This document shows, piece by piece, positions 3,026 through 64,000 of a stretch of 64,000 nucleotides of DNA. The translations under genes were made by a program, and so were the position numbers. Positions within the stretch are counted from its first letter, which is position 1. The number at the start of each line of letters is the position of its first letter. The notes beneath the pieces were generated by a model. It had not been told where the DNA came from. It was given only the letters and a program-made list of their open reading frames with translations, and ran no database searches. The stretch covers positions 64,001 to 128,000 of the forward strand of contig CAVPBK010000005.1 in NCBI GenBank assembly GCA_963701855.1, read 5' to 3'. The DNA comes from Nitrospirota bacterium (GTDB taxonomy: Bacteria > Nitrospirota > Nitrospiria > Nitrospirales > Nitrospiraceae).

Positions 3026-4264
3026 TTACTTCTTAGCCCGTAACTCATTGTCCAGGTGTTCTGCTTCTGTGATTTGGGCTGAACTCATCTTGGACGCGAC
3101 AACGCTCCGAAGTTCCATCGCATCCTGATGGCCTTGTCCCCCAGCACGGCTAAACCAGACATAGGCCTGAACATAGTTCTGAACCACTCCATAACCATTC
3201 GCATAGAGGAGTCCGAGGTTGACTTGCGCTGTTGCGTCCCCTTGATCAGCCGCGCGACGGAACCAGTGCTCCGCCTGCCGGTAATCTTGTAAGACCCCTC
3301 GGCCTCTTGCATACAGCAGTCCCAGATTGAGTTGCGCTAGGGGATTCCCTTGATCAGCCGCGAGACGGAACCAATGTTCCGCGTGCTGGTAATCCTGCTG
3401 GACGCCATGGCCTTTGGCATACATGAAGCCTAGGTGGGCTTGCGCTGTAATATTTCCCTTGTGAGCTGCCTGGCGTAACCAGCGGGCGGCTTCCGCATAA
3501 TCCTGTCTGACGCCCAAGCCCTTCGCATAGAGCAGCGCGAGGTTGACCTGCGCAGAATCATTGCCTTGATGAGCGGCCAGTTCGTACCACCGCCTCGCCC
3601 TAAAGTAGTTCTGCGGGACTCCGTCACCCTGCGCATACATGAGGCCGAGGTTGAACTGTGCACGATCATGTCCCTTCTGAGCTGCCTGGAGTAACCAGCG
3701 GGCGGCCTCCGTGTAATTCTGCGGAACACCCAGGCCCTTGGTGTACAAGTACCCTATGTTGATCTGAGCGATCACATTCCCTTGATCGGCTGCTCGGAGG
3801 AACCAATGGGCAGCCTCGGTGTAATCCCGGGCAACACCTTGACCTTGGATGTACAGAAGAGCCAGGTTCAACTGTGCAGGGCCATGTCCCTGGTCGGCTG
3901 CCAGACGGAACCAGCGGGCGGCTTCCGCATAATCCTGTGTGACGCCAAGGCCCTCATCGTAAAGGACCCCCAAGTTGAACTGAGCCGCACTATTTTCTTG
4001 GGAGGCCGCCAGGAGAAACCACCGTGCCGCTTCTGCATAGTCATGCGAGACACCCTCGTGGTGGGCAAACATATAGCCCAGCATGAACTGAGCGAACGAG
4101 TCCCCTTGATTCGCCAGTGAGTGAAACTCCTTGAATGCAGTCTGATACTCATGACGGTCATAGGCTGCTAACCCGGCGGGCATGTCTGCCCAGGATTGCA
4201 TAGCCAGAGTGGTCAAAAGAACAATTGAAGTCATCAATATAGTCACGGTCCGTCGCATCACCAT
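3026..4264 (-). CDS. Secreted SEL1-like repeat protein
   Basis: Signal peptide, then about ten 36-aa repeats AQ.NLG..Y..G.GV.QDY.EA..W...AA.QG. Alternative TTG start at 4276. Confidence 0.92.
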   Translation of the reverse strand: MVMRRTVTILMTSIVLLTTLAMQSWADMPAGLAAYDRHEYQTAFKEFHSLANQGDSFAQFMLGYMFAHHEGVSHDYAEAARWFLLAASQENSAAQFNLGVLYDEGLGVTQDYAEAARWFRLAADQGHGPAQLNLALLYIQGQGVARDYTEAAHWFLRAADQGNVIAQINIGYLYTKGLGVPQNYTEAARWLLQAAQKGHDRAQFNLGLMYAQGDGVPQNYFRARRWYELAAHQGNDSAQVNLALLYAKGLGVRQDYAEAARWLRQAAHKGNITAQAHLGFMYAKGHGVQQDYQHAEHWFRLAADQGNPLAQLNLGLLYARGRGVLQDYRQAEHWFRRAADQGDATAQVNLGLLYANGYGVVQNYVQAYVWFSRAGGQGHQDAMELRSVVASKMSSAQITEAEHLDNELRAKK

Positions 4265-4491
4265 GGTTGGTGCCAATGCGTATGTTTTATAGTGTCATCG
4301 GGCGTGAAGGCGCATCACAGCTCGGATGAGCACTGGATTGAAATGAGCTTGTCTGGGAAGGGAGTGATCCCATGAGCCGGCCTCTATGATTAATCCTGGT
4401 CTTGATCCATGAACAAGTGAGGAACATCTGATTTTGTAGTGGACACGGAGAGTCCTTCCCAATCCACACCCGGTCATGTCGAGAACGTAGC

Positions 4492-5865
4492 TTATCTGGA
4501 TACCTGTGGGTTGTGCCAACCACCCTCGATGAGCCGATCCGCTTCGTGCGGACCCCAGGTGTGTGACTCGTACTCGTGTAAGGGCATCGGGATGTCGAGA
4601 ATCGGCTGCACAACGCGCCAAGCGGCTTCGACCCCATCCGCGCGGGCAAAGAGCGTGGCATCGCCCTTCATTGCGTCTCCCAGGAGACGCGCATAGGGAT
4701 CCATCTCGTCACCGGAGCTCTGTCGCGCGACCAGTTCCACGCGCTCGCCCACCATCGCCTCTCCCGGCACTTTGCTGTTGGCGCCCAAGGCGATTCTCAT
4801 GTCGGGGCTGAGCCGGAAGCGAACAGAGTTCGGGAACGGTGGGACGATCTCATCCAACACCGGCCAACATGGCCGTTTGAACTCCACCAGGACTTCGGTG
4901 GCCGTAACCGGAAGGCATTTCCCAGTGCGCACGTAGAAGGGCACTCCAGCCCACCGCGCATTGTCGATATAGCATCGCAGTGCGGCGAATGTCTCGACCT
5001 GGGAGTCAGGAGCCACGCCACTCTCGTGGCGGTAGCCCTGGAACTGTCCCCGGACCACATTCGAAGGACTGAGCGGCCGGATCAACTTTAGGATGTTCAC
5101 CCGTTCTTCCCGAATCGATGCATGATCTTTCCCTGGCGGCTGTTCCATCGCCAGGCAAGCTATCACCATCAGCAGATGATTTTGCACCACGTCGCGAATC
5201 GCGCCCACCTCCTCATAGAACGAGCCTCGACCGGCCACTCCGAACTGCTCGGCCATGGTGATCTGCACGCGTTGGATGGAGTGGCGATTCCATCCGGCCT
5301 CAACGAACGGATTGGCGAAGCGGAAGTAGATCAAGTTCTGGACCGGTTCTTTCCCGAGGTAATGGTCGATGCGGAAAATGGCGTGATCCGGGAAATAGGC
5401 GCGGAGCATGCGGTTCAGCGTCTGCGCTGAGAGTAGGTTTCGTCCGAAGGGTTTCTCCACAACCACGCGAGCCCCATCAACGCCGCCTGACGCGGCCAAC
5501 CCCTCAATCACGGTCGTGAATAGGCTGGGCGGTATGGCCAGGTAATAGAGGGGCCGCGTAGCGGAACCGAGTGCCGTGCGTAGGCGTGCAAAGGTAGTAG
5601 GGTCCCGGTAGTCGCCGCTGACATACCGCAGCGATTCAAGCAGGCTGGCCGAAGCCTGGGGATCGACGCCCCCATGGCGTTCAAGGTTTTCGCGGACCTG
5701 GGTTCGTATCTGCTCCGGCATCCGCTCGGGCTTGGCGACCCCAATGACAGGTCCCTTGAGATGGCCACGGCGCACTAACGCCTGTAGGGCTGGAAGGATC
5801 TTCTTCGCTGCGAGATCGCCTGTGAACCCAAAGACGACGAGCGCATCCGACGGTTCGGTGGCCAT
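4492..5865 (-). CDS. zwf: Glucose-6-phosphate 1-dehydrogenase
   Basis: GFTGDLA, EKPFG, RIDHYLGKE, RDVVQNH and RTGK motifs; AAGGA RBS best spaced to the ATG at 5865. Confidence 0.95.
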   Translation of the reverse strand: MATEPSDALVVFGFTGDLAAKKILPALQALVRRGHLKGPVIGVAKPERMPEQIRTQVRENLERHGGVDPQASASLLESLRYVSGDYRDPTTFARLRTALGSATRPLYYLAIPPSLFTTVIEGLAASGGVDGARVVVEKPFGRNLLSAQTLNRMLRAYFPDHAIFRIDHYLGKEPVQNLIYFRFANPFVEAGWNRHSIQRVQITMAEQFGVAGRGSFYEEVGAIRDVVQNHLLMVIACLAMEQPPGKDHASIREERVNILKLIRPLSPSNVVRGQFQGYRHESGVAPDSQVETFAALRCYIDNARWAGVPFYVRTGKCLPVTATEVLVEFKRPCWPVLDEIVPPFPNSVRFRLSPDMRIALGANSKVPGEAMVGERVELVARQSSGDEMDPYARLLGDAMKGDATLFARADGVEAAWRVVQPILDIPMPLHEYESHTWGPHEADRLIEGGWHNPQVSR

Positions 5866-6145
5866 AGTCATCTTCCTTTCAGTCCAGCGTCCCCCTCCGC
5901 AGGCTCACTGAGCGCGTACCACATGGCAGAGAAAACGAGGGCGGCGATGATCTAGCATCCTCCATCGAAGCGGGGACGATGTATTGAGGCGGTTGATAGT
6001 CGGCGCCAGATCAACGTGCGGCAACCAGTCACCACGAGCCGACACAGTGAGCGCCTGTAGCACCAGACCGCTGCATTGCACGTAGGCGAGAAGAATGTGT
6101 GACGTTTCTGGCCTTGATCGCTCACCCATCATGTGTATACGACCT

Positions 6146-7363
6146 TCAACGTGAACCATATTCCTGTGGCGCCGGATCTTCCTGTGCTGCGGGCGCGTCC
6201 GCTGTGACGAGGTCGTACCCGCGCTCCGGCGTCACGACGCGCACCTTGGCGTCATCACGCAACGCGGCGCTCGGGTTATTCACGATGCGGTCGCTCGCGG
6301 AAATCCCCTCTGCGACTTCGATGACGTTGTCGAGGAGTTTGCTCACGATGATTGATTTCAAATGCACGCGGTCGTTCTCCGTCACCACGGCCACTTGTGA
6401 GCCATGCTCCTGGAACACCAAGGCGGTGGAAGGAATCGTGGTGACTTGCCTATCGACCGGCGCTGTAAGCTGGACCCGGGCATTGGAGCCGGGCCAGAGT
6501 GTTCGGTCTTCATTCTCGATCGTAAACACCGTTACCGCAGTACGCGTGCTCGCATCGAACCCGCGGGCGACGGCTAGGAATTTCGCGGTGAAATGACGAT
6601 TGGGCAATTGCGGCACGGTGACGACGGCTGTGAGGCCTGGCTGAAGGAAGGGCCCGAACGACTCCGGCACGCTGACGAAGAGGCGCAGCATATGGACATC
6701 AGCCACCGTAAAGAGGTTGGGGATCGCATTGGTGGTACCGAGAGCGCCTTCCGTACTGACCAAGTCACCGACGTTGATGTTGCGCTGGGTCACTACCCCG
6801 TCGAAGGGCGCCACGATCGTCTTGAACCGAATGAACGCCTCGATGTTCTTGACCTTTTGTTCCGCTGCTCTGACTACCGCTGCCTGGACTTTCAAGTTTT
6901 GTTCTCGCACTGCAATCGACTGCTCGGAGCCCGCATGATTTTGGCGCAGTGCCACCCAACGTTTAGCGGTCACCTCGGCGAGCCGATACTTGGCGCGTTC
7001 CGTGTCCAGATCTGCCCTGGCTTGCGCAAATTCTGTGTCGAGATCCGGCGCGTTGATTTCGGCGAGGACCTCGCCTCTCTTGACCTGGGCTCCATAGTCC
7101 TTGAACCACCTCTTCACATAGCCCGTGACTTGTGCATACATCGGAGCCTCATACCACCCCACGATATTGCCGGCAAGCGTAATGGTCTCGGTCGGCAGCC
7201 CCGGCTTTGGATAGACGACGGACACAGTGGGGACGGCGTCTTCGAGCGTCTGCTCGTTCACCAACGTAGCGTCGAGGTTCTCCGCATAGATCCGATAGCC
7301 AAGGAACAGAGCGCATAGCAGGATGGCTGAGATTGTGACGTGTCTTCCTCGAAGGGTCTTCAT
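6146..7363 (-). CDS. RND efflux periplasmic adaptor (MFP), copy 2
   Basis: MKTLRGR start behind AGGAGG; lipoyl/hairpin motifs GYVKRW..DYGAQVKRGEVLAEI and IVAPFDGVVT.RN; paralog of 7670-8881. Confidence 0.9.
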   Translation of the reverse strand: MKTLRGRHVTISAILLCALFLGYRIYAENLDATLVNEQTLEDAVPTVSVVYPKPGLPTETITLAGNIVGWYEAPMYAQVTGYVKRWFKDYGAQVKRGEVLAEINAPDLDTEFAQARADLDTERAKYRLAEVTAKRWVALRQNHAGSEQSIAVREQNLKVQAAVVRAAEQKVKNIEAFIRFKTIVAPFDGVVTQRNINVGDLVSTEGALGTTNAIPNLFTVADVHMLRLFVSVPESFGPFLQPGLTAVVTVPQLPNRHFTAKFLAVARGFDASTRTAVTVFTIENEDRTLWPGSNARVQLTAPVDRQVTTIPSTALVFQEHGSQVAVVTENDRVHLKSIIVSKLLDNVIEVAEGISASDRIVNNPSAALRDDAKVRVVTPERGYDLVTADAPAAQEDPAPQEYGSR

Positions 7364-7376
7364 ATTATGGATCCTC

Positions 7377-7583
7377 CTATTGGCGAATGATTCGCTGGGT
7401 ATAGAAGATCGCATACACGCAGGGCACGAAGAACAGGGTAAAAACGGTGGCGACGAGCAATCCGTCGATGACGGCGAGGCCCAGTGACGCATTCTGGGAG
7501 TAGCCCGTCACCATGGGGACCATCCCGAAAATCATGGCCAGGGCAGTTATGAGGACCGGACGGAAGCGGGTCGTTCCGGCCAT
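7377..7583 (-). pseudogene. Duplicated 3' fragment of the RND permease (last two TM helices)
   Basis: AGTTRFRPVLITALAMIFGMVPMVTGYSQNASLG...VPCVYA closely matches the C-terminus of 8878-10572. Confidence 0.85.
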
Positions 7584-7669
7584 ATCCAGCTGAGGTAGGT
7601 GGAGAGCATTGCTGGTGCCGTTTCCCACGCGAGTGTTACTACCTGTCGGCTGGAATGTCATAGGGGTGG

Positions 7670-8881
7670 CTATGAGTGTTGCTTTGGTACAACTGTTTCT
7701 GCTGCCGTTCCTTCTCCAGTGACGAGGTCGTACCCCGGAGCGGGCGTCACGATGCGTACCTTGGTGTTATCGCGCAATCCGGCGTTCGGGTTGTTCACGA
7801 TGCGGTCGCTCGCGGAAATCCCCTCTGCGACTTCGACGACGTTGCCGAGAAATTTGCTCACGGTGATTGGTTTCAAGTGCACTCGGTCGTCCTCCGCCAC
7901 CACGACCACTTGTGTGCCATGCTCCTGGAACACCAAGGCGGTGGAAGGAATCGTGGTGACTTGCCTATCGACCGGCGCTGTAAGCTGGACCTGGGCATAG
8001 GAGCCGGGCCAGAGTGCTCGGTCTTCATTCTCGATCGTAAACACCGTTACCGCAGTACGCGTGCTCACATCGAACCCACGGGCGACGGTCAGGAAGGTCG
8101 CGGTGAAATGACGATTGGGCAGTTGCGGGACAGTCACGTCGGCCGTCAGGCCCGATTGGAGGAACGGTCCGAACGACTCCGGCACGCTGACGAAGAGGCG
8201 CAGCATATGGACTTCGGCCACCGTAAAGAGGTTGGTCTTCGCATTGGGGGTACTGAGATTGCCTTCCTTACTGACCAAGTCACCAACGTTAATGTTGCGC
8301 TGGGTCACCACCCCGTCGAAGGGCGCCACGATCGTCTTGAACCGAATGAACGCCTCGATGTTCTTGATCTTTTGTTCTGCCGCCCTGACCACCGCTGCCT
8401 GAGCTTTCAGGTTTTGTTCCTGGATCGTGATCGACTGCTCGGAGACCGCATGACTTGAGCGCAACGCCACCCAGCGTCGTGCAGTCACCTCGGTAAGCCG
8501 ATACTTGGCGAGCTCCGTGTCCAGATCCGCCTTGGTCTGCGCATAGTCGGCGTCGAGATCCGGCGCATTGATTTCGGCGAGGACCTCGCCTTTCTTGACC
8601 TGAGCTCCGTAGTCCTTGTACCACATGTTCACATAGCCCGTGACTCGCGCATAGATCGGCGCCTCGAACCAGCCCACGATATTGCCGGGGAGCGTAATGG
8701 TCTCGGTCGGCGCCCCCAGCGTTGGATGGACGACGGCCACGGTGGGGACCGCGTCTTCGAGCGTCTTGTGGAGCAACGCCGTGGCGTCGTCGCCGCTCGC
8801 AAGGATTCGAAGGACGAAATAGAGCACACACAGCAGGATCGCTGAAAGAGCAATGCGTTTTGCTTTGGGTGACTGCATCAT
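7670..8881 (-). CDS. RND efflux periplasmic adaptor (MFP), copy 1
   Basis: MMQSPKAKR start overlaps the permease stop; N-terminal TM anchor and MFP motifs. Confidence 0.9.
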   Translation of the reverse strand: MMQSPKAKRIALSAILLCVLYFVLRILASGDDATALLHKTLEDAVPTVAVVHPTLGAPTETITLPGNIVGWFEAPIYARVTGYVNMWYKDYGAQVKKGEVLAEINAPDLDADYAQTKADLDTELAKYRLTEVTARRWVALRSSHAVSEQSITIQEQNLKAQAAVVRAAEQKIKNIEAFIRFKTIVAPFDGVVTQRNINVGDLVSKEGNLSTPNAKTNLFTVAEVHMLRLFVSVPESFGPFLQSGLTADVTVPQLPNRHFTATFLTVARGFDVSTRTAVTVFTIENEDRALWPGSYAQVQLTAPVDRQVTTIPSTALVFQEHGTQVVVVAEDDRVHLKPITVSKFLGNVVEVAEGISASDRIVNNPNAGLRDNTKVRIVTPAPGYDLVTGEGTAAETVVPKQHS

Positions 8882-57627: not shown

Positions 57628-58151
57628 ACCGATTTCTCATCCCGTTTGGGCTCTTCGTCGTCGTGGTTGGTTTTCTTGCTGTCGGACTGACGCTCAACCC
57701 GCGTGAATTGCCGTCTCCTTTAGTCGGGAAGGCGGCTCCTGAATTTTCGCTGCCGCAGCTCCACGATCAAGAGAAAACGATTTCGTCAAACGATCTCAAG
57801 GGCAAGGTCTGGCTGCTCAATTTCTGGGCGTCCTGGTGCGGGGGCTGCAAGGACGAGCACCCGGTACTCATCCACCTTGCACAATCCGGAGTGGTGCCTA
57901 TCTATGGCATGGACTATAAGGATCATCGGAGCGAAGCGCTGGCGTGGTTGAAGGAGTGGGGCAATCCCTATTCGGTCGTCGCGGTGGATGAGCCGGGGCG
58001 CGTCGGCATTAATTATGGAGTCTACGGGGTGCCGGAAACCTACGTGATCGATAAAGCCGGCGTCATCCGCTACAAGCAGATCGGCCCGCTTCGCGAGGAC
58101 ATCTTGGAGAAAAAGATTTTGCCTCTAGTCAGGGAGTTGCAAAACCAGTGA
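57624..58151 (+). CDS. ccmG: Thiol:disulfide interchange protein CcmG/DsbE
   Basis: NFWASWCGGC, YGVYGVPETY. Confidence 0.93.
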   Translation: MNRFLIPFGLFVVVVGFLAVGLTLNPRELPSPLVGKAAPEFSLPQLHDQEKTISSNDLKGKVWLLNFWASWCGGCKDEHPVLIHLAQSGVVPIYGMDYKDHRSEALAWLKEWGNPYSVVAVDEPGRVGINYGVYGVPETYVIDKAGVIRYKQIGPLREDILEKKILPLVRELQNQ

Positions 58152-58609
58152 GCTGGCTGTGGTTGCTCATGCTGCTACTCCCAAGTTTCGCGACGGCGTA
58201 TGAGGCTCAGCCGCTCGCTGTGAACCCGCAGGCGGAGGCGCGATTGAAAGCTCTTGCCGTCGAGCTGCGCTGTCTGGTCTGTCAGAACCAAACCTTGGCC
58301 GACTCAAACGCGCCCCTGGCTGAAGACTTGCGCAGAGAAGTGCGTGAGATGATCGCAAAAGATATGAGCGACAAGGAGATTATCGATTTTCTCGTCACTC
58401 GATACGGAGATTTTGTCTTATACCGACCGCCCTGGAAGCTCACGACTACGTTGCTCTGGCTGGGGCCGTTTCTCTTATTGGGAGTTGGCGCAACGGGATT
58501 AGTGTTTGCGCTACGCAGGAGACAGAAAAAGGTTACCGACGTGACATTGTCTGAAGCTGAGCATAACCGTGTCGCAAAACTGCTTTCCGAAGGAGTTCAT
58601 CGCCCTTGA
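58148..58609 (+). CDS. ccmH: Cytochrome c maturation protein CcmH
   Basis: LRCLVCQNQ, RYGDFVLY.PP. Confidence 0.93.
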   Translation: MSWLWLLMLLLPSFATAYEAQPLAVNPQAEARLKALAVELRCLVCQNQTLADSNAPLAEDLRREVREMIAKDMSDKEIIDFLVTRYGDFVLYRPPWKLTTTLLWLGPFLLLGVGATGLVFALRRRQKKVTDVTLSEAEHNRVAKLLSEGVHRP

Positions 58610-60270
58610 CCATCATATTCTGGCTGATCGCATCGAGCATGACCCTTCTCATCCTCGGTCTCCTGCTGTGGCCACTGCTGAAACGCACAGTCGCCGTAAC
58701 GGGAGAGCAGGAAAAGACGTTGTCTATTTTCCGGCAGCAGTTTGCAGAATTGGGGCAAGATCGCGCCAACGGTGTGCTCACCGACGAATTGTATGAGCAG
58801 GCGCGACGTGAGCTTGAACGCCGTTTGCTGGAGGAAACAGGCACCACAGAGACGACGCCAAAAATGGCACGTCGACAGGTGAGTAGCAGGCCTGTGGCTC
58901 TTGCTCTTGCCATCATCGTTCCGACTGCCAGCGGGTTGCTCTACTGGCAACTTGGAAATCCCCTCGCCATGACGGAGCCAACCGCGGCTTCTTTGTCTGC
59001 GCAAGGGGGGCCAGAAGGTGCGAGTCCATTTTCTGACGGACTTGGCCCACTGATCGAGCGACTCAAGCAGAAAATGCAGCAGAATCCGAATGATGGCGAG
59101 GGATGGGCATTGCTCGCACGTTCGTACATGGGAATGGGGCGTTACGCCGAAGCCGCACTGGCATATGAGAATGCCACAAAACTAATTCCTGATGATGCCC
59201 AGTTACTCGCCGATTATGCCGATGCCATGGGAGTCCTCCATGGCCGTAAGTTGGAGGGAAAGCCTGAGGTCTTGATTCAACAGGCGCTGAAGATCGATCC
59301 ACGCAATGTGAAGGCACTGATGCTGGCAGGGACTGTGGCGTTCAACCGAAAAAACTTTGCTCGTGCAGCGAAGGACTGGGAGCAAGCTCGTGCCAACCTT
59401 CCTGCGGACGTAGATCCGGAGATGACACAGCAACTGACAGCCGCTATCGAAGAGGCCCGAAGCCAACTCGGTGGTGGCCAAAGCATGATGTCTGGGCTTA
59501 CGGAACCTGCGGCGCCAGCTCAGCCAGCCGGGCAGCCGCGCGTAATCAAGGGCACGGTGGCGATGGCGCCAAGCTTGGCTGGCAAGGGATCACCGACGGA
59601 TACATTGTTTGTGTTTGCACGCGAAATGAATGGACCACCCATGCCGGTGTCGATCGTGCGGGCGTCGAGAAAAGATTTGCCCTTCACGTTTCAGCTTGAT
59701 GACTCAACCAGCCCGATGCCCTCCAGAAAACTTTCCAGCGCAGGCCCTGTAGTGATTGTCGCTCGTCTCTCGAAGTCTGGCCAGGCCATGCCTCAGAGTG
59801 GAGATCTAGAGGGGACGAGTCAGCCGATACAATCAGGGGGGGAGGGGATCGCAGTTGTCATCGATCATGAGAGAATGGATAAAGAATCGGCAGCGCCGGC
59901 TCCGCTAGCCAGCCAGACGGGACAACCGCGTGCGATCAGAGGTACGGTGACTGTGGCGCCGAGCTTAGCCGGCAAAGCATCCGCGACAGACACATTGTTT
60001 GTCTTTGCCCGCGAGATGAATGGGCCACCGATGCCGGTGGCGATCGTGCGGGCGTCGAGAAAAGATTTGCCCTTCACGTTTCAGCTTGATGACTCAACCA
60101 GCCCGATGCCCTCCAGAAAACTTTCCAGCGCAGGCCCTGTAGTGATTGTCGCTCGTCTCTCGAAGTCTGGCCAGGCCATGCCTCAGAGTGGAGATCTAGA
60201 GGGGACGAGTCAGCCAATACAATCAGGGGTTGATGGGATCACCGTCGTCATCGATCGTGAAAGACCGTAA
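58606..60270 (+). CDS. ccmI: CcmI/CycH with TPR region and two tandem C-terminal Ig-like domains
   Basis: N-terminal TMs, LY.QLG.P, TPR (GWALLARSY); C-domain LFVFARE..GPPMP...ARLSKSG present twice. Confidence 0.9.
   Translation: MTIIFWLIASSMTLLILGLLLWPLLKRTVAVTGEQEKTLSIFRQQFAELGQDRANGVLTDELYEQARRELERRLLEETGTTETTPKMARRQVSSRPVALALAIIVPTASGLLYWQLGNPLAMTEPTAASLSAQGGPEGASPFSDGLGPLIERLKQKMQQNPNDGEGWALLARSYMGMGRYAEAALAYENATKLIPDDAQLLADYADAMGVLHGRKLEGKPEVLIQQALKIDPRNVKALMLAGTVAFNRKNFARAAKDWEQARANLPADVDPEMTQQLTAAIEEARSQLGGGQSMMSGLTEPAAPAQPAGQPRVIKGTVAMAPSLAGKGSPTDTLFVFAREMNGPPMPVSIVRASRKDLPFTFQLDDSTSPMPSRKLSSAGPVVIVARLSKSGQAMPQSGDLEGTSQPIQSGGEGIAVVIDHERMDKESAAPAPLASQTGQPRAIRGTVTVAPSLAGKASATDTLFVFAREMNGPPMPVAIVRASRKDLPFTFQLDDSTSPMPSRKLSSAGPVVIVARLSKSGQAMPQSGDLEGTSQPIQSGVDGITVVIDRERP
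59651..60215 (+). repeat. 175-bp identical direct repeat inside ccmI (59651-59825 = 60041-60215)
   Basis: Direct comparison; offset 390 bp. Confidence 0.85.
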
Positions 60271-60398
60271 CGCCGAGAAGTCCACGGGCTGCTCTCTTCC
60301 ATTGCCTCGCATGCTGCACTCCTGCCGCTGATCCGTCACGTATCGTTAGGGCGCTCTGTTTATTGCAGTAAACCGCCAGATTTATTGCACAAGCCCAC

Positions 60399-60448
60399 TT
60401 GACATATTCCGATGTATGCTGAGATATATATGTGCGCTGTTCGCTAAT
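60399..60448 (+). promoter_or_regulatory. hao-like promoter block upstream of the stand-alone CcmI-domain gene
   Basis: TTGACA...ATGCTGAGATATATATGTGCGC...GCTAAT matches 61101-61145. Confidence 0.6.
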
Positions 60449-60503
60449 CGATAAGTTTGCTCAGGAGCGTAGTGATGTGTTTTTACAAACGGGGAGTACG
60501 CAC

Positions 60504-60959
60504 ATGGTCAACAAGTTTTGGCTGAGGTGTAGTCTGCTGGTCTGCGGCGTGCTGCTTATTTCAATGGGAACTGGATATGCGGAACCGGCAGCGCCGGCCA
60601 AATCGTCAGGACAGTCGCTTGCGATCAGCGGCAAGGTCAGTATTGCGCCGAGCCTTGCCGGCAAGGGGTCCGCAACGGACACGTTATTTGTGTTTGCCCG
60701 TGAGACGAATGGCCCACCGATGCCGGTGGCGATCATGCGGGCGACGAAGAAAGACTTGCCCTTTACGTTTCGGCTCGATGACTCGAACAGCATGATGCCG
60801 TCCAGAACACTCTCCGACGTCGCAATGGTGGTGATTGTGGCTCGTCTGTCGAAGTCCGGCCAGGCTATGCCGCAAAGTGGAGACTTAGAGGGGATGAGTC
60901 AACCAGTGAAGCCTGGAGTAGATGGGGTCACCGTCGTCATCGATCGCGAAAGACCGTAG
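60504..60959 (+). CDS. Secreted stand-alone CcmI C-terminal domain with an HAO-like signal peptide
   Basis: GGGGAG RBS; MVNKFWLRCSLLVCG leader (Hao[16 protein letters not shown]); third copy of the CcmI C-domain. Confidence 0.85.
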   Translation: MVNKFWLRCSLLVCGVLLISMGTGYAEPAAPAKSSGQSLAISGKVSIAPSLAGKGSATDTLFVFARETNGPPMPVAIMRATKKDLPFTFRLDDSNSMMPSRTLSDVAMVVIVARLSKSGQAMPQSGDLEGMSQPVKPGVDGVTVVIDRERP

Positions 60960-61100
60960 TCTCAAGAATCAAGGGAGCTCTCCCTCATTACTACTATAAC
61001 GCGTGATAGTTTGCCTCTGACCATACACGAATACTAATGGCACTAGACTTGCTCGGTTCAGAATATATGAGACTTTTTTATACCAAACGCACTTAATATA

Positions 61101-61145
61101 TTGACATCGAATATATGCTGCGATATATATGCGCGGCACGCTAAT
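61101..61145 (+). promoter_or_regulatory. Candidate sigma-70 promoter of hao
   Basis: TTGACA-N17-TATATAT in an AT-rich intergenic region. Confidence 0.55.
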
Positions 61146-61259
61146 TAATGACCGCTAATATCAACAATAGTAGATGCGAATACCGTCACATACACACGTA
61201 CGATCATTAGAGTGGCTTGATTTATAAATAGGGCAATTATCATCTGTGGGAGGGTTAAG

Positions 61260-62969
61260 ATGACCAATAAATTCTGGTTGAGATGTGGCCTGGTAGTTTG
61301 CGGGGCGTTGCTTACGGCAACAGCTCAGGCAGACTTCCCCAGCGTCCCCAAGGAAACCTACGAGGCGCTGAACCTTGATCGGTCCGCCAGCCCCAAGCAA
61401 TTGCATGAGGCGTTGACGAAGCGCTTCGTGGATCCAGGCAGAGGCGCGGGGAAAGGGCAGTACGGCCAGTATTGGGAGCCGATCCCAATGAGCAAGTATT
61501 TCGATCCAATGTCGTTCTACAAGCCCCCGACATCGGTCAAGGAAATCGCGACACGCGAGCAGTGCGTGAAATGCCACACCGATGAGTCGCCGGGGTGGGT
61601 GGAACTTTGGAAAAAGAGTGCTCACGCCAATCTTGACAAGATTCGCAAGCTTACCCCAAAAGACGACACTTTCTACAAGAAGGCGAAGTTAGAGGACGTG
61701 GAAAATAACCTTCGCTCGATTGGCAAGCTCGGACCAACAGAGAACTTGAAGGAAGTCGGCTGCATCGATTGCCACGTTGACATCAACACGAAGAAGAAGG
61801 CCGATCACCGGGTCGACCTGAAGATGCCCACTTCCGATGTGTGCGGCAACTGCCATCTACAAGAATATGCCGAGCGCGAGTCCGAGCGCGACACGATCTT
61901 ATGGCCGAAAAACCAGTGGCCGAGGGGCCGCCCGTCGCACGCGCTGGATTACAGGGCCAACGTCGAGACGGATATCTACGCCGGAATGTCGCAGCGCGAG
62001 ATCGCTGATGGCTGCACAATGTGCCACACCAACCAGAACAAGTGCGATAATTGCCATACCAGGCACGAATTCTCGGTGGCCAACTCCCGCAAGCCTGAAG
62101 CCTGCGGCACCTGTCACAGCGGCGCCGATCACAACAACTGGGAAGCCTACAACGGGTCGCAGCATGGGCTGGGGTACCAGGCCTCTAAAAATCAATGGAA
62201 TTGGAATGTACAGCTCAAGGATGCAGTTGCCAAGGGCGGGCAGCGCTTCCCTACCTGCCAGAGCTGTCATATGGAGTATCAGGGCAAATTCACCCACAAC
62301 ACGGTGCGTAAGGTTCGCTGGGCGAACTATCCCTTCGTGCCTGGCATTAGAGAACCTGTATTTGGCGAATGGGGCCAGAAGCGCCTGGATGCGTGGGTCA
62401 AGACCTGCACAACGTGCCACTCCGAGAGCTTCGCGCGCGCATGGTTGGAGTTTATGGACAACGGCACCTCTGAGGGACTCGATAAATACGATGAGGCGCA
62501 CAACGTAGTCCGTAAGCAGTATGACGCTAGACTCCTCACCGGTCAGAGGAACAACCGGCCTGCTCCTCCAGCGCCGGCTAAGGCCCAGTTCGACCAGTTT
62601 TGGCAGATCTACTGGTCGAAGGGCAACAGCCCTACAGCGATCGAGCTCAAGCTCTTCGAAATGGCTGAGGACCATCTGGTGCAACTGCACGTCAGTCTCG
62701 CGCACCAATATCCAGGGTTCACCTATACTGTCGGCTGGGCAGCGATGAACCGGGCTTATGTCGAAATCATGGACGAGGACACCAAGCTTAAGGAAAAGCT
62801 GATGCTGATGGAACGGGTGGCCAAACTCGAGCAGAGCAAGACCAGTAGCCTGCTGGATTTCGATAGCACGGACGGGAAGCTTACGCTCGGCAGCGTGGGC
62901 GGCGGATTGTTGCTGACCGGCACCCTCGCGCTCGCCGGATGGAGCAGACGCAAGAAGAACCAGCGGTGA
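61260..62969 (+). CDS. haoA: Hydroxylamine oxidoreductase (octaheme)
   Basis: Eight CxxCH motifs, RKVRWANYP, cross-link Tyr context GFTYTVGW, C-terminal TM. Confidence 0.97.
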
Positions 62970-64000
62970 CAACTGGCGCAGCGCAAACGATGGAAGCAGC
63001 GCTGACGCGATCAAGTAGTAGAGTCCTCCCGTCGCTAGGAATAGTCCTAGTGGCGGGAGGACTTCTTATGCTTGGTTGGTTTGCATTTATGTGGCTCAGT
63101 CCAGGCCCAGCGCCGTATCACTACCGCATGGTGGAAGAGGGCGGTATTGATAAGTTCAGCAAGCTCGGACTAGATGCTTGGCCTGACCTTGGCATCAGCA
63201 AGCAAGAGATTCGAGTAGAGGGTGTGGACGAACCGGTAGCTGTAGCCTATCTTGCCCGCCGCGGAAATTCAAAACCCGTTATGCTCGCTTGGGAAAATTA
63301 CATCGGCGATCCATTGGTTTTCGTCGACAGTAAGCTCTCCGAGCTGACCCTGTTGGCACCAGCGATTGCTAAGCATGTGCCGAAAGGCGCTGCCATTCTT
63401 GCCTGGTGGGACACCTCGCGTCAGATTCAGCTCTTGACTGGGTTAGAGACGGTGTTCACCTCTCATCTCAGTGGACCTATTATCACGCCGTCGCTCTGGC
63501 GACCGCGAATCGAGGCGATCGAGAAATACGAACGCGAGTTCTGGGGCTCTACGGTAAGTGCAGAAGAGAGGGGGAAATTCCAACGCTTTGCTGACGCCCT
63601 GTCGGCAGAGTCGACAGAAGGTGCAGCGATGCTGCGTGAACTGACTGGCGGGCGCGAAGCCTATGTCGTGGTTCACGTCTCGGACCTCTACAAACTCGGG
63701 CAGATGCGCCCCGATCGCATCGGTGTCGCCTACAAGGACTTCCCCTTGAAGGGTGGGGATGTGCATGGTCTAAGCGCGATGGTGAAGCGTTGGCAAATGG
63801 ACAACAACTACACTTCCCAAACGGTGTATGGACTCTCGGAGAGTTTAGTGCGCGCCTACTTCCTCACCGATGCGAAGAGCGATAATACGCTGCTCGCACA
63901 GATGCTGCCCATGACGACCTCGAAGCCTCTCGAATTCAAAGCCCTCCAGTTGGTCCATAAACAGGGAGGCTATTGGGTGTATAAGATTCTGTCTGCGCAG
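62966..64000 (+). CDS. haoB: Hydroxylamine oxidation protein HaoB (runs off the window end)
   Basis: GTG overlapping the haoA stop; TM, then [13 protein letters not shown] and [10 protein letters not shown]. Confidence 0.88.

Follow-up and report, generated by a model that had tools for sequence, protein, structure and literature searches.

A small gene between ccmI and haoA of clade B comammox Nitrospira combines a HaoA-like leader with the Ig_CycH domain of CcmI

How might a gene arise that begins like hydroxylamine dehydrogenase and ends like a cytochrome c maturation protein, and what might its product do? This question was raised by a stretch of 64,000 nucleotides from a Nitrospirota bacterium (contig CAVPBK010000005.1, positions 64,001 to 128,000; hereafter, the window), which belongs to contig C5 of a genome of 4.3 Mb and 97% completeness. 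The open reading frames (ORFs) of the window run in the order ccmF-ccmG-ccmH-ccmI, followed by a small gene encoding 151 amino acids (60504-60959, forward strand, as are the other genes, domains, and blocks of the window below; referred to as S), haoA, and haoB. In a species-representative scan, S was found in metagenome-assembled genomes (MAGs) of complete ammonia-oxidizing (comammox) Nitrospira: ELA165 (100% identity), CG24A (85%), and RSF11 (84%). CG24_A and CG24_C were placed in clade B in the consulted passages of Palomo et al. (bioRxiv 10.1101/138586). We are highly confident that S is a real, selected, and chimeric gene of clade B comammox Nitrospira.

S consists of a HaoA-like leader, a Pro/Ala linker, and one Ig_CycH domain (PF23892, E 2.3e-36, residues 41-147), and shares three segments with its two neighbours. 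The first is the leader. S begins MVNKFWLRCSLLVCGVLL, and its N-terminus resembles the start of HaoA, the octahaem hydroxylamine dehydrogenase encoded downstream (61260-62969, 569 amino acids; Pfam Multi-haem_cyto, E 1.2e-133). The leader-coding sequences of S (60504-60581, residues 1-26, ending ...GYA|EP) and haoA (61260-61331, ending ...AQA|DF) were identical at 49 of 72 positions (68%, z 8.4), a value reached by 0 of 200 shuffles, so that the likeness pointed out in a sequence-only reading of the window was present beyond chance. When the 4.3 Mb genome was searched in six frames with S, only S itself, the two Ig domains of CcmI, and the N-terminus of HaoA (residues 1-31, E 2.8e-4) were matched. 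Matches restricted to the leader (query residues 1-31 or 1-40) were obtained in G004, G012, G018, G020, and G023, a few hundred bases 3' of S, where haoA lies. The sequence-only reading had allowed that such leaders might be common to unrelated secreted proteins; since the only other match in the same genome was haoA, and the leader-only matches in these five relatives lay at haoA as well, the likeness is not a generic one.

The second segment is a block upstream of each gene (TTGACA...GATATATATG.GCG), the two copies of which were 79% identical (45 of 57 positions, z 8.4) and occupied the only two such sites in the genome. Copy 1 (60399-60436), a candidate S promoter, contains TTGACA (60399-60404), 18 nt, GATATA, and then TATGTGCG; copy 2 (61101-61135), a candidate haoA promoter, contains TTGACA (61101-61106), 17 nt, TATATA, and then TGCGCG. 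Identity increased to 88% in the 25-nt core (60412-60436 versus 61111-61135). The 21-nt pattern ATGCTGNGATATATATGNGCG had two exact sites in the window against 0.01 expected, and at least two were found in 0 of 100 shuffles. Genome-wide, the same two exact sites were recovered together with one site with three mismatches, and a control with the reversed pattern also gave one. The match between the upstream blocks of S and haoA, as previously proposed, was thereby upheld.

The third segment is the Ig_CycH domain. The upstream gene ccmI (58606-60270, 554 amino acids) encodes an N-terminal membrane part, a tetratricopeptide repeat (TPR) region (TPR_CcmH_CycH; PF23914, E 1.9e-21), and two tandem Ig_CycH domains (PF23892, E 7e-69 with two stretches), at 59500-59877 (hmmsearch envelope; direct repeat D1) and 59890-60267. 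At the DNA level, the Ig domain is a three-copy direct repeat: 59530-59829, 59920-60219 (91% identity), and 60609-60908 (77% identity), the last copy lying in S (linker and Ig_CycH, 60582-60959; repeat D3 begins at 60582). Protein identity between S and the two Ig domains of CcmI was 72-77%, and S aligned with PF23892 at 124.2 bits (cut-off 27), residues 41-147 spanning the whole model (1-108 of 108). The two genes, ccmI and S, share the ending ...VVIDRERP-stop. The claim that the 3' end of S matches that of ccmI was therefore correct in kind and too modest in extent: the shared part comprises the entire Ig_CycH domain of ~125 amino acids and the Pro/Ala linker.

These three segments are arranged at a constant distance. 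The spacing between the repeated copies was 699 bp for the block core (60412 and 61111) and 698 bp for the start of the Pro/Ala linker (59884 and 60582). When unit A (59884-60581), which opens with the linker and second Ig_CycH domain of CcmI and closes with the S leader, was compared segment by segment with unit B (60582-61331), which opens with the linker and Ig_CycH of S, four of the five segments scored above all 200 shuffles; they included the Ig domain (302 of 378 positions, 80%, z 39) and the distal intergenic region (68 of 108 positions, 63%, z 4.1), while the 5' untranslated region (UTR) was not above shuffles. Because the segments were colinear, with the 5' part of S resembling the downstream haoA, its 3' part resembling the upstream ccmI, and spacing being equal, a single tandem duplication of ~0.7 kb is indicated by the sequence to account for the Ig, block, and leader similarities together. 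A tandem duplication of the ccmI tail, the intergenic region, and the hao 5' end, as put forward in the sequence-only reading, was borne out by this colinearity and by the 698-699 bp spacing. On the left, the comparison places the breakpoint where the last Ig_CycH domain of ccmI starts, and on the right, just past the predicted signal-peptidase site of haoA. In S, the junction lies between residues 26 and 27 (...GYA|EPAAPA..., 60581/60582), and the deduced order of the product is ccmI - [hao block and hao leader | linker, Ig_CycH, and ccmI stop] - hao block - haoA. With this one duplication over two gene boundaries, the newborn gene received its promoter-like block, ribosome-binding region, export leader, and folded domain all together.

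The direction of this transfer may be read from loci that lack S. In ST-bin4 and UBA6909, a ccmI with one Ig domain lies directly 5' of haoA, which has an upstream element of the TTGACA...GATATA/CTATAG type; since haoA carries this TTGACA-type element in both, the block was ancestrally that of hao and passed from hao to S. In L052, a ccmI with one Ig domain (S-like) is followed by an insert of 1.25 kb and then by the block with a short 5' UTR of the S type before haoA; this locus may preserve the arrangement from before the duplication or may have lost S secondarily. Both L052 (1180-2300) and L033 (4217-6666, G003:C10) have, 3' of a one-Ig ccmI, an inserted ORF with a 4Fe-4S-like CxxC motif. 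A candidate relic of S in clade A, at L033 6438-6666 of G003, was rejected: it proved to be an incomplete copy, with a frameshift, of the ccmI 3' end of G003 itself, behind the inserted ORF.

A search of 25 genomes of the genus gave full-length S in 9; among 61 loci of the species-representative collection, 10 had it, and an eleventh (CG24C) matched only to residue 120. Wherever contigs permitted a check, S was located between ccmI and haoA, and in 15 loci it lay 244-568 bp 5' of haoA. Of 17 distinct copies, 16 were intact (148-154 amino acids), and 72 columns were invariant among 27 S sequences. Selection was estimated by the Nei-Gojobori method from 120 pairs of 16 genomes, after three duplicates and CG24C had been dropped. 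The median dN/dS was 0.123 for mature S, 0.395 for the S leader, 0.108 for HaoA, and 0.092 for the last Ig domain of CcmI. An intact frame under selection had been suspected from the sequence of the window, and the value of 0.12 across 16 genomes together with the 16 intact copies of 17 is consistent with this; on the same two grounds, S is not evolving neutrally, which had been named as an outcome that would speak against it.

It is very improbable that S arose as an artefact of assembling the repeated Ig region, or that it is a neutral by-product of the duplication. Contigs do end in or beside the repeat in G002, G004, G014, G015, ELA165, and SMAG_U16271, and the copy of CG24C (L050) is out of frame after approximately residue 108; however, the same architecture recurs in many independent assemblies, S is 20-30% diverged from the CcmI copies, dN/dS is 0.12, and 16 of 17 copies are intact. 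In L050 (4001-4450, Nitrospira sp. CG24C), the lost frame is followed by unrelated DNA and genes with no haoA, and this break may be due either to a rearrangement or to a chimeric contig. Short-read contigs also break in or near the Ig repeat in L025, L026, L037, L038, L043, L056, L064, and L065, where ccmI and S-haoA are separated; because of such breaks, S will be undercounted in presence/absence surveys of fragmented MAGs.

In a collection of 5.8 billion proteins, 415 clusters matched S at E <= 0.001, and among the 120 clusters listed, 115 covered 100% of S at 79-99% identity. The names of these clusters were "hypothetical protein" or "cytochrome c-type biogenesis protein CcmH", the latter assigned automatically by one source. 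The identification of S as CcmH was rejected, as a tblastn search with the CcmH of the window (58148-58609) matched only ccmH genes and never S; both labels are misleading. A "duplication of CcmI" unique to clade B was noted by Palomo et al. (bioRxiv 10.1101/138586), and it is the same gene as S, which is present in CG24A (85% identity) and CG24C. It differed in that those passages described the duplication of a protein, whereas only the last domain is duplicated here, together with the hao leader and hao block. The description of S as new therefore does not hold for the existence of the gene, while its chimeric make-up is not mentioned in these passages. No account of the hao-derived leader and block, the single-domain nature, selection, age, or expression of S was found in the comammox and CcmI literature searched. 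As a clade B-specific difference within the hao operon, S may serve as a clade marker.

The age of the duplication was examined using a careful maximum-likelihood tree built from 79 Ig domains, in which a clade (99/93) united the 35 that belong to the CcmI of S-bearing lineages and excluded S. The free tree did not recover S as one clade; in the approximately unbiased test, S as one clade was not rejected (p 0.69), and the constrained tree had a log-likelihood 7 higher. Within a genome, S and the last Ig domain of CcmI differed by a dS of 0.27 to 1.6, with low values in L027 (0.27) and L047 (0.36); this is approximately the between-species level (0.82), and dS among the tandem copies of CcmI, which were often nearer to each other, ranged from 0.19 to 1.1. 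Seven positions were near-fixed for different residues in S and clade B CcmI domains. At four of them, S had the state of other Nitrospira CcmI (R90, D105, K136, and P137); S was derived at one (M97), and clade B CcmI shared the state of other Nitrospira at 1. These comparisons indicate that the duplication was older than the radiation of the S-bearing genomes, and also older than the tandem multiplication of Ig inside CcmI (from 1 to 3 copies). By the same sequence evidence, S is old and conservative, and the copies resident in CcmI are more derived, having diverged once the duplication had taken place and later increased to 2 or 3. Among S-bearing genomes, the number of Ig_CycH copies in CcmI varied from one (L027 and L047) to three (L045 and L046).

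The block is also conserved. Its consensus, cTTGACA-N(15-18)-ctGAGATAyATGyGCGc, was found 5' of S in 16 of 17 loci, G023 being the exception, and 5' of haoA in 15 of 15. The -35 hexamer TTGACA is perfect in both copies of the window, and the -10 candidates, GATATA and TATATA, fail the rule of the scanner. The GC-rich stretch immediately after the -10 of the block resembles the discriminator of growth-rate-controlled promoters. A Shine-Dalgarno-like element (GGGGAG, 60491-60496) is located 7 nt 5' of the S start codon, and a ribosome-binding element of the GGAG type is found 7-8 nt 5' of the start in aligned loci. An Rfam search of 60200-61400 gave 0 matches at E <= 1, and the two 5' UTRs and two post-stop regions folded no better than shuffles (z +0.6 to +2.2). 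Neither a riboswitch nor a leader structure was found in the intervals separating ccmI, S, and haoA, and a clear terminator was not found there either. Co-regulation of S with hao through the duplicated block is plausible.

It might be argued that selection maintains the duplicated promoter rather than the protein, i.e., that a second hao-type promoter reads through into haoA and the S protein is incidental. The conserved blocks and the lack of a convincing terminator between S and haoA fit this possibility; nevertheless, we consider it improbable, in view of the strong constraint on the protein (dN/dS 0.12, 72 invariant columns in 27 S sequences) and of an S that is intact in G023, where the block is missing, and in L048, at a distance from hao. 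In the latter locus (4001-8437, MAG 337R), hao is inverted, with haoB-haoA on the opposite strand ~2.5 kb 3' of S, and S and the block are kept. In G023 (L029 5161-6315, G023:C12), a transposase-like ORF of 323 amino acids (IS5-like by eye) lies between ccmI and S.

The S leader, on inspection by eye, has K4/R8, a hydrophobic core, and GYA|EP (AQA, AYA, or AFA in orthologues), features that suggest Sec export with cleavage after residue 26. The product would then be a soluble periplasmic Ig_CycH domain of ~125 amino acids, probably expressed from its own copy of a hao-type promoter. In an AlphaFold2 model based on an alignment of 37 rows, residues 40-151 formed a seven-stranded beta-sandwich with a predicted local distance difference test score (pLDDT) above 90, and the leader and linker were disordered, with low pLDDT for residues 1-26. 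The N-terminus of S is not of the CcmI type, since residues 1-26 aligned with the HaoA leader and a tblastn search with CcmI residues 1-298 matched ccmI genes only. S therefore resembles CcmI/CycH in matching the full 108-position model of Ig_CycH (PF23892) and keeping its invariant loop, and differs in having neither the membrane anchor nor TPR, in place of which it has a cleavable-looking leader derived from haoA and its own upstream block. The loop, AR.S.SG.A.P..GD..G, is invariant across the family and is kept in S, the CcmI copies, betaproteobacterial CcmI, and IgX (see below); because it is retained, S probably still does what the Ig_CycH domain does. As a natural, soluble, single-domain version of the Ig-like C-terminal domain of CcmI, S may be used as bait.

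Is S then alone in its architecture? At E <= 0.001, Ig_CycH matched 5359 representatives (50%-identity representatives), and among the best 150 of these, the cluster of S (P0124) was the only leader-bearing, full-length, stand-alone form. Short Ig_CycH proteins outside Nitrospira were considered as secreted stand-alone forms and rejected: eight of the nine examined were CcmI fragments, and the ninth (P0227) was a TPR-less membrane form. CcmI with several Ig domains is common elsewhere, as many distant representatives of 530-715 amino acids had 2-3 matched stretches.

The fold of S may also be compared with small periplasmic beta-sandwiches. The pilotins AspS (5wec; Z 8.8, rmsd 3.3, 103 aligned) and ExsB (2yjl; Z 8.5, rmsd 3.3, 98 aligned) are of this kind. 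Their sequence identity with S was only 13-14%, in a Z range that is common for unrelated models, so that the likeness is one of shared fold only. On inspection by eye, S has no Cys where cleavage is predicted, and the locus offers no secretin context.

The sequence-only reading had suggested that S could be a dedicated maturation factor of HAO or of multihaem cytochromes. As stated, this was unsupported, because the chaperone role is assigned to TPR and S has Ig_CycH only: in the reviews consulted, apocytochrome binding by CcmI and NrfG was assigned to the TPR region, and the C-terminal alpha/beta region, the part that S carries, is mentioned only as predicted (PMC3884852; PMC12285233). We give some preference to another mechanism, tentatively and with less than even confidence, over an HAO-specific factor. 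S would perform in trans the task that the C-terminal Ig_CycH domain has in cis as a part of CcmI in the CcmFHI haem-ligation machinery, and the dose of the Ig_CycH module would increase when the haem-rich hao operon is turned on. S would be an additional, soluble Ig_CycH module for system I maturation, acting in trans in the periplasm. This fits with the same lineage having also multiplied the domain inside CcmI. Chimeric origin, selection, and the in-trans module, when taken together, are somewhat favoured as the best explanation overall.

The HAO-specific version, in which S specifically serves HAO (or c554/cM552), acting as a direct chaperone or stoichiometric partner of the apo- or holo-enzyme, appears unlikely. 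In its favour, S lies immediately 5' of haoA with a copy of its block in 15 loci, its constraint is similar to that of HaoA, and dedicated CcmI-like helpers exist, e.g., NrfG for NrfA (PMC12285233). The NrfG of E. coli is also a maturation part encoded beside the gene of the multihaem enzyme it serves (PMC12285233). However, NrfG, which binds to the C-terminal helix of NrfA (PMC12285233), is the TPR part, whereas S is the non-TPR part and lacks the very region with which NrfG and CcmI bind their substrates. Moreover, ST-bin4, UBA6909, and L052 have haoA without S, and HAO therefore does not need S; L048 keeps S away from hao. A complex prediction of HaoA (25-535) with mature S (27-151), both supplied as alignments, gave a score of 0.00 in both runs, which speaks neither for nor against such a contact.

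The in-trans module in turn has to be weighed against several observations that count against it, or against the expression and export on which it would depend. In G023, a transposase ORF replaces the upstream block of S, yet S is intact. The spacer between TTGACA and the AT-rich element is 3 nt longer in the S copy of the block than in the hao copy, and a simple sigma-70 scan of 58000-63200 called neither block, giving one unrelated site on the minus strand against 2.9 expected. Twelve RNA runs contained 0.21-0.32 of the sampled words of 58600-63000, which is not evidence of S expression. The proposed secretion of S is drawn from inspection by eye and from homology to the HaoA leader. At E <= 0.01, S matched Ig_CycH and no other Pfam family, TPR included. 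A sequence-profile search of the PDB with S gave 0 matches at E <= 1, and a wide fold search returned generic beta-sandwiches only, with the AspS and ExsB pilotins being the best, followed by FN3. Similarly, nothing was found at E <= 1e-3 when the S model was compared with the PDB using Foldseek. In the literature searched, no paper with the name Ig_CycH and no function of the domain were found.

A further possibility is that S has left cytochrome maturation for another periplasmic role, the candidate being that of IgX, a stand-alone Ig_CycH protein of other Nitrospirales (150 amino acids, Pfam E 5e-17; L104:1477-1926 and L105:1568-2095). Like S, IgX is a protein of ~150 amino acids in which a hydrophobic N-terminus precedes a single Ig_CycH domain; it differs in its identity of 35-37%, its unrelated N-terminus, and its SirC-like/HNH/Rieske neighbours, and is independent of S in origin, and older. 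Of the 16 genomes of the genus without S, 10 had IgX, as did 9 of 16 genomes of other families. The idea that S took over its role draws on the complementary distribution of the two, since no intact IgX was found in the 9 S-bearing genomes, in two of which short remnants of it persist: in G004 (G004:C28:4615-4716; 76% identity, with a stop) and G013 (G013:C281:12073-12153). The best match to IgX in G000 is S itself, and IgX also occurs in genomes otherwise without a CcmI-type match, and thus the domain can work outside CcmI. However, clade B is one lineage, and the complementary pattern therefore represents a single event. The neighbours of IgX (SirC-like and HNH) were also not found in G000 with the queries used, an empty answer that shows little, and the whole region may be missing for unrelated reasons. 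With S and IgX being only 35-37% identical in addition, we consider this role to be rather less likely than that of an HAO-specific factor.

Elements of these alternatives may be combined, such that S is a newly born periplasmic protein that is co-expressed with hao, acts directly on ammonia-oxidation cytochromes, and has replaced a lost IgX; we estimate this to be improbable, to about the same degree as the dedicated HAO factor. If it were true, S could help to assemble HAO/HaoB in clade B comammox or be their stoichiometric partner, a first function would be provided for the uncharacterised Ig_CycH domain, and a single datable duplication would be tied to a difference in physiology between comammox clades A and B. 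The preferred reading remains that of S as an in-trans Ig_CycH module of system I.

Additional ccmI paralogues of 435-448 amino acids with one Ig domain were observed in L039 and L040 (G018), L041 (G012), L042 (G002), and L017 (G024). They lie away from any match to ccmF, ccmG, or ccmH, and none was present in G000. At the other end of the locus, haoB (62939-64000), an ORF with no Pfam match, continues past the end of the window and follows haoA in other loci, too. Its longest frame begins 31 nt 5' of the haoA stop, and the two genes would overlap at 62939-62969 if that start is used.

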